A stretch of DNA of 42,407 bases from a virus (lineage: Duplodnaviria > Heunggongvirae > Uroviricota > Caudoviricetes). The notes below the pieces were generated by a model, which made no database searches, was not told the origin of the DNA, and was given only the letters and a program-made list of their open reading frames with translations. The stretch's first letter is position 1. Every line of letters starts with the position of its first letter. The translations under genes and the position numbers were made by a program. Location of the stretch: IMG/VR virus record IMGVR_UViG_2565956608_000007, positions 1 to 42,407 of that record; one strand, written 5' to 3'. Shown here piece after piece: positions 1,815 to 41,710 of the stretch.

Positions 1815-2987
1815 CTACAGCGCGGCTGAAATCGCGGTTTTACCGTCATATTCAGCCAGGTATTTACCGTAGTTGCGGAATATCATTTCCGGCCCTTTGT
1901 GGCCCATCTGTCCGGCAAGCCAGAATAGGTTAACGCCCTGGCTAATATGCTTGGTGGCGAATGTGTGCCGCGTCTGGTACGGGTTACGATAGCGCACGCC
2001 AGCTTTTTTCAGGGTCGGCACCCATGCTTTTTTACGGATAGCGTCGGCGTTCGCCCAGGGGTCTCCCGTTTTCGGGTCGCTGAATATGAACTCACTTTTC
2101 ATGAAGGTGTATTGCTTCTGCGCCTGCAGGGCCGCCAGCGCCTCACTGTTCAGCTCCACCTTTCGGGTACCGGCTTTTGTCTTGGTGCCTTTAAGTACCC
2201 CTACGACACTGGCCGCCTGAACGTGGGCTGTGTTCGCGATGGTGTCGAGATCAGGCCAGCGCAGCGCGCACAGTTCGGAGCTCCGCAGACCGGTATTGAA
2301 AGCAAAGCGGAACAGGTTTTCCCATTCCGGGTACCTGCAGCTCTGGTAAATGGCGAGGGTCTCCGCTGGCGTGAACGGGTCAACCTCGTAATCGTCGGCG
2401 CTCGGGCTGCTGTCGATCACGTGGTACCGGCTGGCGCTGACGAGGGTTACCGGGTTAATGGTCAGCAGGCCATCCGTAACAGCTTCATCGATGGCGCTGC
2501 GCAGAAATGAAAGGTTATTCCTGGTCGTTTTCAGTTTTGTTTTCCGGCTGGCTATCCAGTTTTTAAGGACCGCTGGCGTCAGTTCTGACACGTGGAGTTT
2601 ATGCAGGGCTGACAGCGCCGACAGGCATTTTTCATAACCGTTGATAGTCGACGGGGACAGGTTGCGGTTCTGGCAGATTTTCAGGTACTCGTCCAGGTAA
2701 GACTTTATGTTTTTGGTTTTCTTCACCACCCCGAACAGCTCCAGTTTTTTGGAGTTGGGGAAATATTTCGCATATTCAAAGGTGCCACTGACGATCTGGT
2801 TTTGTATCTCCCCGAGCAGGCGCTCGGCGTACTTAACACCGCGCGCGTTTGCTTCCATTTTGGAGAGGGGCTCCCGGCACAGAACCCCTTTGTATGTGAA
2901 AGTGATAACCAGAGTGTCGCCAGTTTTATGCTGGCGGATGGTTACTCCTCTTGGGAGAGATAATGATCCTTGTTCTTTCTTGCCCAC
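1815..2987 (-). CDS. int: tyrosine integrase (lambda-type site-specific recombinase)
   Basis: 390-aa ORF with C-terminal R..HxxR..Y catalytic signature (RHTFATKHI ... RNYGKY); 3' end abuts attL. Confidence 0.9.
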   Translation of the reverse strand: MGKKEQGSLSLPRGVTIRQHKTGDTLVITFTYKGVLCREPLSKMEANARGVKYAERLLGEIQNQIVSGTFEYAKYFPNSKKLELFGVVKKTKNIKSYLDEYLKICQNRNLSPSTINGYEKCLSALSALHKLHVSELTPAVLKNWIASRKTKLKTTRNNLSFLRSAIDEAVTDGLLTINPVTLVSASRYHVIDSSPSADDYEVDPFTPAETLAIYQSCRYPEWENLFRFAFNTGLRSSELCALRWPDLDTIANTAHVQAASVVGVLKGTKTKAGTRKVELNSEALAALQAQKQYTFMKSEFIFSDPKTGDPWANADAIRKKAWVPTLKKAGVRYRNPYQTRHTFATKHISQGVNLFWLAGQMGHKGPEMIFRNYGKYLAEYDGKTAISAAL

Positions 2988-3151
2988 TTCGAAACCTCCG
3001 TTAAGTCAATCCAGCGTTCTTTAACGCCATCGACTTTTAATACATGTACTCCCTCCTTCCATAACCCCCTTTGTATCCGTTTGTTAACGGCTTCTACCGT
3101 TTCCCCCGCGTCCCTGCAGTATGTAGAAAGGGGTACACAGTCAAGACTCAT
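2942..3151 (-). CDS. xis: excisionase-like DNA-binding protein (start chosen at internal ATG)
   Basis: Small ORF overlapping the int start by 46 nt; lambda Xis-like pattern (ETVEAVNKRIQRGLWKEGVHVLKVDG); upstream in-frame start at 3202 also possible. Confidence 0.55.
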   Translation of the reverse strand: MSLDCVPLSTYCRDAGETVEAVNKRIQRGLWKEGVHVLKVDGVKERWIDLTEVSKWARKNKDHYLSQEE

Positions 3152-3440
3152 GGCTGACCTCCTGCCCGAAAGCCTGGGCATTTTCCAGTTCATTAGCGGC
3201 ATAAATCAGGGCGTTGTGATGCGCGCGAAAACCACCATCAAGTTCGCGAGCAGCTCTGTCGCGCAAGATGTCGATCGCAGCCTGATAGTCATTCTGGTAA
3301 TCGGCCGAACTGGCCGGCAGCTCCGCCAGCACCATCAACATGTTTTCCGGGTCGATGGGAATGGTGGCGAGCCCAAGCTCTTTGGCCTCCGCCGCTAAAC
3401 GGGTCCAGCGTTCAATAATTTCAGTGGTACCTTTTTTCAT
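3141..3440 (-). CDS. hypothetical protein (early left operon)
   Basis: 99-aa ORF with GAGG ribosome-binding site upstream of the ATG at 3438-3440. Confidence 0.5.
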   Translation of the reverse strand: MKKGTTEIIERWTRLAAEAKELGLATIPIDPENMLMVLAELPASSADYQNDYQAAIDILRDRAARELDGGFRAHHNALIYAANELENAQAFGQEVSHES

Positions 3441-3448
3441 GGCATGCC

Positions 3449-3544
3449 TCAGAAACCTATCAAAAATTTATACTCAATCAGCGCGCCGAACACGACGGCC
3501 ACCAGCAACAGGCCAAACAGCAGAGAAAGGAAGAATGCTTTCAT
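3449..3544 (-). CDS. small hydrophobic peptide, 31 aa (MKAFFLSLLFGLLLVAVVFGALIEYKFLIGF)
   Basis: ATG overlaps the stop of the upstream gene as ATGA; AAGGA ribosome-binding site; single predicted transmembrane helix; below the size cut-off of the ORF track. Confidence 0.35.
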   Translation of the reverse strand: MKAFFLSLLFGLLLVAVVFGALIEYKFLIGF

Positions 3545-3762
3545 TTTCTGTCCTTCAGTTTGCTGTATCGTTCATGGCTCATTACTTCCCAGTTCTGGCC
3601 GCCGTCTCGGGACAGCAGCCGCCAGCGGCGATTAACCCTCAGGCTCAGGTTTCCGGAGCGGTGCATACGGCAGGGATGAATTCGCCTGGCTCTGAACTGG
3701 CGGAGCACATGGACCGCCTGCAGGTGCACCCACTCAGGAATTCGTATCGCTGTCAGGGCCAT
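3541..3762 (-). CDS. hypothetical basic (Arg-rich) protein
   Basis: ORF from internal ATG at 3760-3762 with AGGAGA ribosome-binding site; tight packing with neighbours. Confidence 0.4.
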   Translation of the reverse strand: MALTAIRIPEWVHLQAVHVLRQFRARRIHPCRMHRSGNLSLRVNRRWRLLSRDGGQNWEVMSHERYSKLKDRK

Positions 3763-3946
3763 TGTCCTTCTCTCCTGCTGGTGGGGTGATCGTGTAACCG
3801 GCGCGTTCAGCCATCCATAAAAAAGTCTCCAGCGATGCTGTAACCTCTCCGTTCTGAACCGGGCGCGCGTGGATAACTTTCCCATTCTCGATTGTCAGCA
3901 CGATATTTACTGGTTCGTGCGTGATAATTGGTGTCTGATCACTCAT
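3734..3946 (-). CDS. hypothetical protein
   Basis: 70-aa ORF from ATG at 3944-3946 with GGAG ribosome-binding site; overlaps the upstream gene end by 8 nt. Confidence 0.45.
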   Translation of the reverse strand: MSDQTPIITHEPVNIVLTIENGKVIHARPVQNGEVTASLETFLWMAERAGYTITPPAGEKDNGPDSDTNS

Positions 3947-4304
3947 GGCTTGTCTCCGCTGTGACTGATTTTTTTTTCTTGGCAAACTCGACCACCTCAG
4001 CAATGAGATCGTCGATTAATGCCTTTCCGCTTTCTGTCAGGAATTCACCGCTGCCATTAACATCAACAGCGCTGCTGTAAATTCCCTTGATAGCTTTTAC
4101 GCCTTCGACATTCCCGTACTCACTGATCGCAAGCCTTTCGAATTTTCTCAATAATCCATCAAGAAGAATCTCTGTTAACTCGACCGTGTTAATGCCGCCT
4201 TTATTGAGCTTAATAACAAGGCAGTTACTGCCTGTTTTACGCTGGTGGCGTAATAACGCTGCCTTTAAAATTCTGCGTCGGTAGGTGTTGATTAAATTAT
4301 CCAT
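3939..4304 (-). CDS. hypothetical protein
   Basis: 121-aa ORF with strong GAGGAGG ribosome-binding site upstream of ATG at 4302-4304. Confidence 0.6.
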   Translation of the reverse strand: MDNLINTYRRRILKAALLRHQRKTGSNCLVIKLNKGGINTVELTEILLDGLLRKFERLAISEYGNVEGVKAIKGIYSSAVDVNGSGEFLTESGKALIDDLIAEVVEFAKKKKSVTAETSHE

Positions 4305-4338: not shown

Positions 4339-4518
4339 CTATTCTTTTTCGGTCCAGTCATGAATATCAGAGGCTAGGTCATAAACAAGAGCGCAAATCG
4401 TTTTAAGTTGGAAGTGGTCGAGCTTGTCGTGATATTCAAATAAAGTTTGCGACAGACCCGCTAGTTGCTCATCTTTGATATTCACGCCCTGAATATCCTG
4501 CCTTGTTAAAATGCTCAT
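4339..4518 (-). CDS. hypothetical small protein
   Basis: ORF in early left operon; start chosen at internal ATG (MSILTRQ...); weak ribosome-binding site. Confidence 0.3.
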   Translation of the reverse strand: MSILTRQDIQGVNIKDEQLAGLSQTLFEYHDKLDHFQLKTICALVYDLASDIHDWTEKE

Positions 4519-4624
4519 AATTAACGTCCGTATGCTTTTTTTAGGTAAAGACGAGCGATTACCTCGTAACCGCAAGCCGCATAAAGGCATGCTGTTCTAT
4601 ATGCCGATTTATTAATGATGAAAG

Positions 4625-5017
4625 TCATACGAAGCGCCTCACAGCCAAAGAAGCGACCACCCGACCGTGAATTTTGATTTCTTTCTGTTCATCAGCATTA
4701 AGGGTGAAAGTTTCGTAATGATGGTTATCAGAGATGATTTTTAATGAGCCATCAGCTAATGGCTCAATTCTCTTAATGAAAAGGCATGGGCGACCAAAAG
4801 CATCCATTGTGTAAACATAAATTCCAGAGGTAAGCGCACTTCCACCGCAATCAACGAAAGCCACAACCTCACATGGTTCGATGGTCGGCTGCATTGAATC
4901 ACCTTCCATCCGGCAGCTTTGAACGCGGTTGCCAAAGTCATTAATGTTGTCAGATCCGAACAGCATCTGAGGCGTTTTAATTGGCTTATTAATTGCGACG
5001 GAATTTTGCATTCTCAT
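4625..5017 (-). CDS. stand-alone S24 (LexA/UmuD-like) peptidase-domain protein
   Basis: 130-aa ORF with GDSMQP serine motif and downstream FIKRI lysine motif typical of S24 peptidases; no HTH domain; GAGG ribosome-binding site. Confidence 0.7.
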   Translation of the reverse strand: MRMQNSVAINKPIKTPQMLFGSDNINDFGNRVQSCRMEGDSMQPTIEPCEVVAFVDCGGSALTSGIYVYTMDAFGRPCLFIKRIEPLADGSLKIISDNHHYETFTLNADEQKEIKIHGRVVASLAVRRFV

Positions 5018-5077: not shown

Positions 5078-5509
5078 TTAAATCTTGTCGGCTTGCTTGC
5101 AGATGGTTTCTTGCAAGTCGTCTAATTTTTCATAAACGATAGTTAGCGTACCGATAGCCGACAATTCCGGAGGCATACAATCCATAGCGTTGGATAAAGC
5201 CATTCTGCAATTGCCAATATCCGCAGACCATGAATTAAGTTGATTGGAAGTTATAATGCTTGTTGGCTCTGTAAAATCACCACACTGCTCGTTTCCTGAA
5301 ATGAGCCACAGAACATCAGAATGAAGAATGTTAGCCAATTGGATTAACTGGTCAGCAAACGGAACAGTTTTTTCCGTTTCCCAGTTGTTAATGGTTTCGG
5401 TTGTTAAACCAAGATGATCAGCCAAAAAATCCTGAGACAGTCGAAGCGAAGATCTTTGATTTAATATTCTTTTGCCGATGGTTTTGGCTACGGTGATTTG
5501 AGTATTCAT
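5078..5509 (-). CDS. HTH (XRE-family) DNA-binding protein, first gene of leftward early operon
   Basis: 143-aa ORF with N-terminal helix-turn-helix (LRLSQDFLADHLGLTTETINNWE); preceded by operator-like palindromes. Confidence 0.7.
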   Translation of the reverse strand: MNTQITVAKTIGKRILNQRSSLRLSQDFLADHLGLTTETINNWETEKTVPFADQLIQLANILHSDVLWLISGNEQCGDFTEPTSIITSNQLNSWSADIGNCRMALSNAMDCMPPELSAIGTLTIVYEKLDDLQETICKQADKI

Positions 5510-5552
5510 TTCATTGGCTCCGTTGTTTGCCGATGAATGAACTTTAAGTCAT

Positions 5553-5572
5553 GCAATAACTTATTGCAATAA
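5553..5572. promoter_or_regulatory. OL-like operator: overlapping palindromes GCAATAAcTTATTGC and TTATTGCAATAA
   Basis: Perfect 12-bp palindrome at 5561-5572 and 15-bp near-palindrome at 5553-5567 upstream of the leftward operon; the TTATTGCA motif recurs once in the cI-cro intergenic region (6457-6464). Confidence 0.5.
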
Positions 5573-5669
5573 CAAAACTTATTTTTCTTTTGCGATTTAG
5601 TTTAATGCATTGATTTTTTTGATTAAATTTTGTTATTAAACTGCATACTTACAGCTACAGACAAAGAAA

Positions 5670-5710: not shown

Positions 5711-6409
5711 TTAGAGCCTATTGTAATTGATTGATTCATGCATTATGGCTTTACCCATCACGTAAAGGTCATCTTGGTTTTCTTCCGTGATATACCATTT
5801 CTCATATGCCGGATTATCCGATAAGACTGCCAGCCTGTTTCCCTGCATCTGGAGACGTTTTAGGTGAAATGTTTTACCAAAAACAAAAACATACACACCA
5901 TCCGTTAGAAAGTGTCGGACGGAAATGTCTACGAAGACACGATCACCGGAATTGAACGTGCTGGCCATGCTGTCGCCATTGACGGTCATTACTTTTACGA
6001 CATCTTCACTACGATTCCCGAAGAGGGATTTTGCATGTTGAGTCGTGAACTCAATAGCGTGTAAAACCTCCACATATTCTGAAAGCATGAACGTGCCAGG
6101 CCCTGCACTCACTGAAAGGTCAAGAACCTCGACCCTGAATATGCCAGCGTTATCCTTTACCTCCCTTTCGGGCATGGTCTCTATCACATAGCCCTGTCTA
6201 TGAGGCACATGATTTTTTCCAGTTGATAGCCATTCAGGGCTCACACCCAGCGCATTAGCAATCTCAACCAACTTACGTGTTGTGTTGGTTTTGCCTGCAA
6301 CAAGACGCCAGATAGCTGGTTGCGAAACCCCAACTTTCATCGCTAATTCTGCCTGTGTAAGGCCTGCGTCAACCATCGCTTTTTGAAGACGATCTGAGAA
6401 TGTGTTCAT
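5711..6409 (-). CDS. cI: CI-like prophage repressor (HTH + S24 autopeptidase domain)
   Basis: N-terminal HTH (LTQAELAMKVGVSQPAIWRL) and C-terminal S24 motifs (GDSMAS ... FHLKRL); divergent from Cro-like gene. Confidence 0.85.
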   Translation of the reverse strand: MNTFSDRLQKAMVDAGLTQAELAMKVGVSQPAIWRLVAGKTNTTRKLVEIANALGVSPEWLSTGKNHVPHRQGYVIETMPEREVKDNAGIFRVEVLDLSVSAGPGTFMLSEYVEVLHAIEFTTQHAKSLFGNRSEDVVKVMTVNGDSMASTFNSGDRVFVDISVRHFLTDGVYVFVFGKTFHLKRLQMQGNRLAVLSDNPAYEKWYITEENQDDLYVMGKAIMHESINYNRL

Positions 6410-6518
6410 ACCAATAAGCCTATACAAAAAGTTATTAAGTGGCAAATACGATAAGTTATTGCATAAAGTTATTCAAGGCTATACTCTTTCCCTATGTTCA
6501 ATAACTTTTGGTATTTTT
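6410..6518. promoter_or_regulatory. cI-cro intergenic operator/promoter region (OR-like)
   Basis: Four copies of AGTTATT/AATAACT (6430-6436, 6454-6460, 6467-6473, inverted at 6500-6506) between divergent repressor genes. Confidence 0.55.
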
Positions 6519-41230: not shown

Positions 41231-41238
41231 AAGTGCAC

Positions 41239-41255
41239 GTGCATTTTACGTGCAT
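41239..41255. repeat. 17-bp direct repeat GTGCATTTTACGTGCAT (right arm)
   Basis: Identical to 1743-1759. Confidence 0.45.
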
Positions 41256-41347
41256 TTTTTTGTCTTTTCTCGGTCTGCGCTCTGTCTGGTCAGAGTCCGT
41301 AAGTAGCTGTTTTTATTGCCGCTGTCCGGTTGTAGTCCTATCAAAAG

Positions 41348-41710
41348 TGGTGGAGCTGGCGGGAGTTGAACCCGCGTCCGAAATTCCTACATCCTCGGTA
41401 CTACATGCTTAGTCAGTCTTTACATTCGCTTGCCAGCTGCGGACGGACACGCCACTAACAAACTAGCCTGATTAAGTTTTAACGCTTCAACCCCAGGCAG
41501 GGCTTCCACGCGATCTCTTTTGGGTTTGACCTCTCTTGATCCCCGTCCTAAGAGCGGAGGCTAGGGAGAGAGGGCTCTAAGCAGGTTATTAAGCTGCTAA
41601 AGCGTAGTTTTCGTCGTTTGCGACTATTTTTTGCGGCTTTTTACGAGGCCAACCGCCCCTCGGCATGCACCTTGGGTTTCGCAAATCCCGTCGAATCCAG
41701 AATCAGCCCC
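41348..41710 (-). ncRNA. ssrA: tmRNA (transfer-messenger RNA, SsrA)
   Basis: Minus-strand sequence begins GGGGCTGATTCTGGATTCGACGGG and ends ...GGTTCAACTCCCGCCAGCTCCACCA; 363 nt; directly downstream of smpB. Confidence 0.95.
41355..41384. repeat. attR core inside ssrA (GCTGGCGGGAGTTGAACCCGCGTCCGAAAT)
   Basis: 29/30 identical to 1663-1692. Confidence 0.65.

Follow-up and report, generated by a model that had tools for sequence, protein, structure and literature searches.

The window analysed here, the whole 42,407-nucleotide (nt) stretch of IMG/VR virus record IMGVR_UViG_2565956608_000007 (Caudoviricetes), carries an E. coli prophage in which a short minus-strand gene encodes a hydrophobic peptide of 31 amino acids (aa). 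This gene is real and conserved, it is coupled to its neighbours, its product is hydrophobic and helical, and it behaves as a module that is restricted to phages. We consider it highly probable that the product is a translated membrane peptide. As to its role, we tentatively favour the view, drawn by analogy, that the peptide would span the inner membrane once and act there through a membrane partner to which it binds.

A conserved and translationally coupled gene

The coding sequence (CDS) occupies positions 3449..3544 on the minus strand, stop codon included (ATG at 3544-3542, TGA at 3451-3449), and its 31 codons specify MKAFFLSLLFGLLLVAVVFGALIEYKFLIGF. This assignment draws on the list of open reading frames (ORFs), on an identical public protein and on the ratio of non-synonymous to synonymous polymorphism (pN/pS). 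The start codon overlaps the TGA stop codon of an upstream ParE-like gene in the sequence ATGA (3541..3544, minus), an arrangement that points to coupling by termination and reinitiation. A Shine-Dalgarno (SD)-like GAAGGA is found at 3551..3556 (minus), 6 nt 5' of the ATG and within the end of the ParE-like gene. At the other end, the stop codon of the peptide gene is fused with the SD of the next gene in the sequence TGAGG (3447..3451, minus), and the next ATG follows after 8 nt at 3440. A preliminary description of this DNA had proposed an ORF in this very position with an ATGA overlap, translationally coupled and flanked by two genes of the early left operon, and both the position and the coupling (ATGA on the 5' side, TGAGG on the 3' side) were confirmed. 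It had also called the ribosome-binding site a good one. Such a site is indeed present, but its strength is moderate rather than strong: the predicted duplex of GAAGGA with the anti-SD has a free energy of -5.4 kcal/mol, compared to -3.1 ± 2.5 kcal/mol for random 22-mers of the window, while in other genomic contexts the peptide gene is preceded by GGGAGG, for which the value is -10.3 kcal/mol.

The IMG/VR viral contigs were scanned with a degenerate DNA pattern for GALIEYKF, which matched 92 stretches. Apart from one chance match and one degenerate allele, these all contained an ORF of the same family with 28-34 codons, and in total ~100 phage and prophage loci carry this frame. On its upstream side the frame has at least five unrelated neighbours, namely the ParE-like gene, a 204-aa gene and three families of 74 aa, 137-140 aa and 160-167 aa, and on its downstream side at least eight unrelated gene families. 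The ATGA overlap was retained in nearly all of the loci, the exceptions being one context in which the upstream stop codon is located 14 nt 5' of the start codon, and phage phi467, which has TGATGA.

Selection was analysed in a set of homologues that avoids the bias of the search pattern, as its members were chosen through neighbouring genes, together with phi467 and blastn matches in E. coli genomes. The G-[ATS]-L-I-E-Y-K-F-L motif of codons 20-28 also holds in homologues that were found without using it as a search pattern. For 39 distinct DNA sequences of the neighbour-selected set, pN/pS over codons 1-28 was 0.27. The hydrophobic codons 1-19 gave 0.37 and codons 20-28 gave 0.063, with 0.096 for the adjacent ParE-like gene, and the annotated frame had the lowest pN/pS of the six frames. 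Synonymous variation was seen at K2 (AAG/AAA), S7 (TCT/TCC/AGC), L13 (TTG/TTA/CTG), E24 (GAG/GAA) and Y25 (TAT/TAC), as well as at G20 (three codons), L22 (four codons) and L28. Because frame, length and ATGA coupling recur with different neighbours and are accompanied by purifying selection, the ORF is, on this comparative evidence, a real and conserved gene, far beyond what chance would give. The preliminary description had proposed that the gene be given up if its reading frame were not conserved in homologous regions; the frame proved to be conserved and under purifying selection across the ~100 loci.

The same measurements bear on the idea that there is no gene on the minus strand at all, and that the signal has its source in a plus-strand ORF (3340..3789) or in some non-coding element. 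This ORF is open for 149 codons opposite the peptide and ParE-like genes, and the antisense frame is free of stop codons in every homologue. However, pN/pS of the antisense frame is 0.55-0.80, the ORF overlaps the ParE-like gene, the coding strand of which is fixed by a Pfam match, and there was no Rfam match. We therefore find this explanation scarcely credible. None of 20,000 synonymous recodings of the peptide closed the part of the plus-strand ORF that lies opposite it, and the ORF was rejected as a by-product of composition.

An identical peptide is encoded on 224 contigs, always as a "hypothetical protein" (for example GCJ07740.1 from E. coli and KDF72504.1 from Enterobacter kobei), and its cluster at 90% identity has 55 members. 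The gene was called at the same place in 10 of the 10 contigs inspected, and the records of phages LMessi (XNS37525.1) and phi467 (CUW01254.1) have it as an annotated CDS. The Prokaryotic Genome Annotation Pipeline (PGAP) omits it in both RefSeq records that were inspected, NZ_CM147701.1 (L001, 3628..3723) and NZ_CP033635.1 (L207, 2501..2596). Annotation is thus inconsistent between records, with Prodigal-type pipelines and phage submitters calling the gene and PGAP/RefSeq not doing so. The label "unannotated" that the gene had been given is true for PGAP in these two RefSeq records, but elsewhere the gene has been deposited, annotated in phages and catalogued. Specifically, Table S2 (Entero67K) of Fesenko et al. 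2024, "The Cryptic Bacterial Microproteome" (PMC11188072), lists MKPFLLSMLFGLLLVAVVFGALIEYKFLMNY as cluster Citrobacter_76875 from Citrobacter NZ_CP011132.1, a sequence that is also present among the loci collected here. It was found as an "intergenic" small ORF, and its entry comes without phage context, coupling, cassette behaviour or function (PMC11188072). The family is catalogued already, but not described.

Of 185,579 species-representative genomes, 11 (from Pseudocitrobacter, Citrobacter, Enterobacter and Trabulsiella) contained a member of the family, as did 19 of 5,426 complete genomes of E. coli and two phage records in GenBank, while a search of a plasmid collection gave no match. 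By this distribution of homologous sequences, the family is confined to temperate phages of Enterobacteriaceae. In phmmer searches over 1.84 billion representative proteins we obtained four clusters, all of this family, with no distant relative and no larger protein carrying the motif. The best Pfam match was PsbX (PF06596) with 17.0 bits against a gathering cut-off of 25 (E=0.0059), a match of hydrophobicity only, and the best PHROG match, phrog_15251, was not significant (E=0.084 for the window peptide, 0.0092 as the best value among 17 family members). NCBIfam gave no significant match for the peptide, PADLOC none at E<=0.1 and Rfam none of relevance at the locus; tblastn of the peptide against phage records gave no match either, probably through the low-complexity filter. 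A profile search of the PDB yielded nothing significant, the best match being helix 9 of colicin A (1col_A, E=0.41). In this match, residues 9-27 show a weak and probably compositional likeness to residues 174-191 of 1col_A (IAGILLAAVVGALIDDKF), which belong to helix 9 of the pore-forming domain.

Comparison of related phages revealed how the gene comes and goes. Through the ParE-like or the 74-aa gene we fetched 101 loci, 68 with the peptide gene and 33 without it. In two of the latter (L199 and L201) the 74-aa gene is joined directly by ATGA to a 70-aa gene (MNKGQQSAYPCP...), and in two others (L029 and L076) the same two flanking genes have the peptide unit between them. Alignment of the two pairs showed a clean difference of ~107 nt with the microhomology gATGAA at both edges. 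As judged by this alignment, the peptide gene is a discrete accessory cassette of ~107 nt, which phages either carry or lack between identical flanks. The peptide ends in 2-5 residues (IGF, VR, MNY, MNF or MDFGG) that co-vary with the downstream gene and encode its SD. Since this tail tracks the downstream gene, the functional core would consist of residues 1-28. The most frequent downstream partner is a 99-aa gene, which is not constant, as seven other families replace it. A functional tie of the peptide to either the ParE-like or the 99-aa gene was rejected because both are replaced by unrelated genes elsewhere.

The tight coupling at both ends, with the last codons encoding the downstream SD, is what one would expect if the ORF were a translational relay only, handing ribosomes from the upstream to the downstream gene by way of a functionless peptide. 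The same might be read from L199 and L201, where the flanking genes are coupled directly without the cassette. However, this direct coupling also means that a relay is unnecessary. Moreover, selection acts on the amino acids, with a pN/pS of 0.06 for the motif and synonymous changes that take two steps, such as TCT to AGC. A pure relay is therefore highly improbable.

Some loci contain unusual alleles. In L081 (IMGVR_UViG_2751185945_000008) we observed a hybrid, MKIQHQDYGAVAAVVFGALIEYKFLIGF, which joins 11 codons from the start of the 74-aa gene to the last 17 of the peptide. Protein P0017 is an 85-aa in-frame fusion of the 74-aa protein and the peptide, which would add a C-terminal membrane anchor to that protein.

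The peptide product and its possible role

With 31 aa in the window and 28-34 aa over the homologues, the product is within the size limit of small membrane proteins (at most 50 residues), and it has one hydrophobic segment, residues 3-23 (AFFLSLLFGLLLVAVVFGALI; 3476..3538, minus), that is predicted from insertion energy and AlphaFold2 to span the membrane once. Its grand average of hydropathy (GRAVY) amounts to 1.98. On the Hessa scale, the summed apparent insertion free energy of residues 5-23, the best 19-residue window, is -3.8 kcal/mol. AlphaFold2 without an alignment predicted a single helix from residue 2 to 30 with a mean predicted local distance difference test score of 95.7. The earlier view of the product as a short, hydrophobic peptide with one helix is thus borne out, and we infer that this helix is inserted in the membrane.

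Residues of the hydrophobic segment change between homologues yet remain hydrophobic. The end of the helix is formed by a near-invariant motif, G-[ATS]-L-I-E-Y-K-F-L (codons 20-28; 3461..3487, minus), which is the block with the pN/pS of 0.063. In an alignment of 17 diverse members M1, L13, G20, L22, I23, E24, Y25, K26 and F27 were invariant, L14 and L28 nearly so, and small residues were conserved at positions 7, 11, 16 and 20. K or R is present at the N-terminus in all cases, and the net charge of the C-terminal side varies from 0 to -2 with the tail. By the positive-inside rule the N-terminus is probably in the cytoplasm and the C-terminus outside, with E-Y-K-F-L at the periplasmic interface, a topology that is weakly favoured.

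The N-terminal part also has some of the looks of a cleavable Sec signal peptide. Residues 1-20 would then be cut off after V-F-G, and a C-terminal peptide of 8-13 residues (ALIEYKFL...) would be released to the periplasm as an effector or signal. K2 is followed by a hydrophobic run, and V18-F19-G20 before A21 fits the -3/-1 positions, G20 being invariant and position 18 being V, A or I. The N-terminal part is also the faster-evolving one, with a pN/pS of 0.37 versus 0.06 for the C-terminal block. For the catalogued homologue Citrobacter_76875, Table S2 gives Phobius "SIGNAL_PEPTIDE", but it also gives SignalP 6.0 negative, with "nonTM" in the transmembrane column (PMC11188072). Furthermore, the hydrophobic region of ~16-20 residues has the length of an anchor and contains neither a helix breaker nor a polar c-region, the AlphaFold2 helix runs unbroken through the putative cleavage site, the released peptide would itself be hydrophobic, and no conserved neighbour resembles a receptor. 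Cleavage is therefore improbable. Slightly more improbable still is the particular version in which the invariant ALIEYKFL plus the variable tail of 0-5 residues would be released as an extracytoplasmic effector or as a signal between phages or between phage and host. If this were true, Gram-negative enteric phages would have an arbitrium-like communication peptide, the specificity of which would lie in the variable tail.

For a peptide held in the membrane by a single span, we propose the following sequence of events as a working model. The transcript would be that of a repressor-controlled early leftward operon, active after induction or infection. Ribosomes that end translation of the upstream gene would restart at the overlapping ATGA, while the last codons and the stop codon of the peptide gene would supply the ribosome-binding site of the next gene. 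The hydrophobic helix of 31 residues would insert into the inner membrane, probably with its N-terminus in the cytoplasm. The invariant motif and the helix would then bind an inner-membrane component that is conserved among Enterobacteriaceae, and this binding may alter envelope or membrane-protein function to the benefit of the phage. We infer the timing of expression, as well as the existence and identity of the partner, from the features described here. The roles that the preliminary description had put forward, namely host killing, division inhibition and modulation of membrane proteins, are plausible by analogy with known small peptides.

The proposed timing follows from operator-like palindromes. 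At 5551..5637 (strand unassigned), ahead of the gene with which the leftward operon begins, there is TGCAATAAnTTATTGCA with half-sites. This 17-nt palindrome and the half-sites AATAAC/GTTATT are common to 5551-5637 and to the cI/cro intergenic region at 6414-6516. In lambdoid phages, OL and OR carry such a shared operator arrangement. The repeats make it reasonable to label the operon as early left and to regard it as repressed in the lysogen. Since they precede the leftward operon, they suggest that the peptide is made after induction or infection rather than in the quiescent lysogen.

Several observations weigh against a membrane peptide that acts through a partner. One third of the otherwise similar phages are without the gene, which is therefore dispensable, and no constant neighbour gene hints at a partner. 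The motif may just as well be conserved for lipid binding or for self-association. The topology is set by a small difference in charge, and the catalogue's calls for the homologue are a signal peptide by Phobius and "nonTM" (PMC11188072). The case for repressor control consists of the repeats, whereas the consensus scan predicted no promoter. Finally, the literature searched contained no study of the family, and its motif appeared in the main text of no paper.

Size and extreme hydrophobicity are also those of TisB, DinQ, Hok, Ldr and TimP (PMC3567139, PMC7667032, PMC8309996), and the peptide might accordingly be a membrane-damaging toxin that oligomerises in the inner membrane, dissipates its potential in the manner of a type I toxin or holin-like peptide, and arrests host growth after induction. 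The conserved small residues at positions 7, 11, 16 and 20 could aid helix packing, and in the window a toxin-like ParE-like gene adjoins the peptide gene. The genetic context argues otherwise. A type I toxin has its own transcription unit with a regulated 5' untranslated region (UTR), but here there is neither an own promoter nor a 5' UTR, and in nearly all contexts the gene shares 4 nt with its upstream neighbour. Neither an antisense promoter-like site nor an Rfam RNA was found at the locus, where a novel RNA is possible. A holin gene would be expected beside the endolysin in the lysis cassette. The late lysis genes of this phage, identified by matches to HK639 and LMessi, are located at ~12.5-14.5 kb, ~9 kb away from the peptide gene, which is at 3.5 kb in an early operon of opposite orientation. 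Nor does the peptide have the charged, hydrophilic C-terminal tail typical of holins and many type I toxins, as only the eight residues EYKFLIGF, with a net charge of ~-1, extend past the helix core. In addition, an early depolarising toxin would harm phage production, and the most conserved part of the peptide is the interface motif and not the helix core. Taken together, we regard a toxin as unlikely.

We place at the same low level the possibility that the peptide serves in superinfection exclusion or defence, keeping out the DNA of competing phages at the inner membrane or protecting the infected or induced cell, like the early T4 protein Imm. A cassette that is present or absent in a mosaic region is reminiscent of many phage exclusion and moron genes. 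The predicted membrane location, with a conserved motif that would face the periplasm, and the narrow host range are in line with this idea as well. On the other hand, PADLOC gave no match, the gene has no promoter of its own and belongs to an operon that is seemingly repressed in lysogens, and the known exclusion proteins HK97 gp15, T4 Imm and P22 SieA are larger (see also PMC10883804). Binding of a membrane partner is the role that we tentatively prefer, with the reservations given above.

The leftward operon and the surrounding prophage

The window is a segment of an E. coli chromosome, and its first 1650 bases match the glaH region of ATCC 11775 and similar strains with 100% identity. The prophage itself is ~39.7 kb long and has a 30-nt direct repeat at its two ends (1663-1692 and 41355-41384), the copies being 97% identical. 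As the right copy is located within the 3' end of the transfer-messenger RNA gene (41348..41710, minus), the prophage has integrated in ssrA, while its integrase is found at the far prophage end, adjoining glaH. Just inside both ends there is a second 30-nt repeat (83%; 1740-1769 and 41236-41265).

From 5509 to 1815 the minus strand contains ten co-directional genes that overlap or are separated by small gaps. Before them come a gene for a cI-like repressor (5711..6445, minus) and then a terminator-like hairpin (5690-5669). The leftward operon opens with a gene for a 143-aa XRE-type helix-turn-helix (HTH) protein (5078..5509, minus) with weak PADLOC matches to RmrA/CapH-like HTH proteins, and a short S24-peptidase-like gene of 130 aa follows (4625..5017, minus), the same-position gene in related loci being called S24 family peptidase. 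The XRE-type HTH gene and the stand-alone 130-aa gene resemble a split repressor-like pair. Next come an 83-aa gene (4339..4590, minus) and, after it in operon order, a 121-aa gene (minus; phrog_1737). A 70-aa gene (3734..3946, minus; phrog_340, no Pfam match) then precedes the ParE-like, toxin-like gene of 73 aa (3541..3762, minus; Pfam ParE_like PF24732, E=1.7e-19; phrog_1525), for which we used the 73-codon frame that PGAP and other gene callers use in related loci. These two genes overlap by 29 nt in the layout of an antitoxin-toxin pair, and the putative 70-aa antitoxin falls in no recognised family.

Downstream of the peptide gene, the operon continues with the 99-aa gene of unknown function (3141..3440, minus; phrog_36586, E=2.4e-49, no Pfam match), an excisionase gene (minus; phrog_2917) located between the 99-aa gene and the integrase, and the integrase gene (1815..2987, minus). 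In a consensus scan, no strong promoter-like and no terminator-like site was seen at a distance of up to ~570 nt from the peptide gene.

In some related phages the mosaic region carries other membrane-directed cargo as well. In L135 and L152 (~3126-4144), downstream of the ParE-like gene and a 135-aa gene, we found a gene for a 64-aa membrane protein with two helices and then a 275-aa lipoprotein-like gene (MKKAIMASIIALSAIGLVGC...).

Significance and comparison with known systems

The peptide gene belongs to an uncharacterised family but is ordinary in kind, an accessory gene of a mosaic prophage region and no new type of system. Small membrane peptides are routinely lost in annotation, and several of them are potent regulators or inhibitors of membrane machines. 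The present family offers a clean test case, as it combines a constrained motif of nine residues with a narrow host range and with natural pairs of phages that differ by the cassette alone. With these features, the effects of deletion or transplantation would be easy to interpret. Should a host target be found, the peptide would provide a phage-derived handle on inner-membrane function in Enterobacteriaceae.

In lambda, the small and non-essential proteins Kil (47 aa) and CIII (54 aa) are encoded in the early left operon between the immunity region and xis/int. The peptide gene is like kil and cIII in its genomic place, its small size and its accessory status. Kil is a soluble protein that targets FtsZ, and CIII is an amphipathic inhibitor of FtsH, so neither spans the membrane. 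There is no sequence similarity between these proteins and the peptide, and of the three only the peptide is predicted to be membrane-spanning.

LysM of phage M (37 aa), which inhibits MurJ, and E of phiX174, which inhibits MraY, illustrate how phage-encoded peptides of little more than a single membrane helix can be specific inhibitors of host membrane enzymes. These proteins are the sole lysis function of phages with single-stranded RNA or DNA genomes, whereas the phage studied here has a separate late lysis cassette, and its peptide gene is early and dispensable.

With the type I toxins TisB, DinQ, Hok/Ldr and TimP the peptide shares a similar length, hydrophobicity and predicted targeting to the inner membrane (PMC3567139, PMC7667032, PMC8309996). 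Each of those genes is transcribed from a promoter of its own, with a structured 5' UTR, and is countered by an antisense or trans-encoded RNA antitoxin, whereas the peptide gene is translationally coupled inside a polycistron. Citrobacter_76875, known as a catalogue entry only, belongs to the same family as the peptide (PMC11188072).

The comparison on which our preferred role is modelled is that with the small membrane proteins of enterobacteria, such as AcrZ, MgtS, MgrB, KdpF, CydX and YohP. The peptide has no sequence relation to these proteins (Pfam, NCBIfam, PDB), and in contrast to them it is phage-encoded and located in an early operon. Like the peptide, they have fewer than 50 residues and one hydrophobic helix, and they are often skipped by annotation. 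Small single-span proteins of this kind bind larger membrane proteins (reviewed in PMC12648545), and YohP is inserted into the membrane after translation (PMC7549839).

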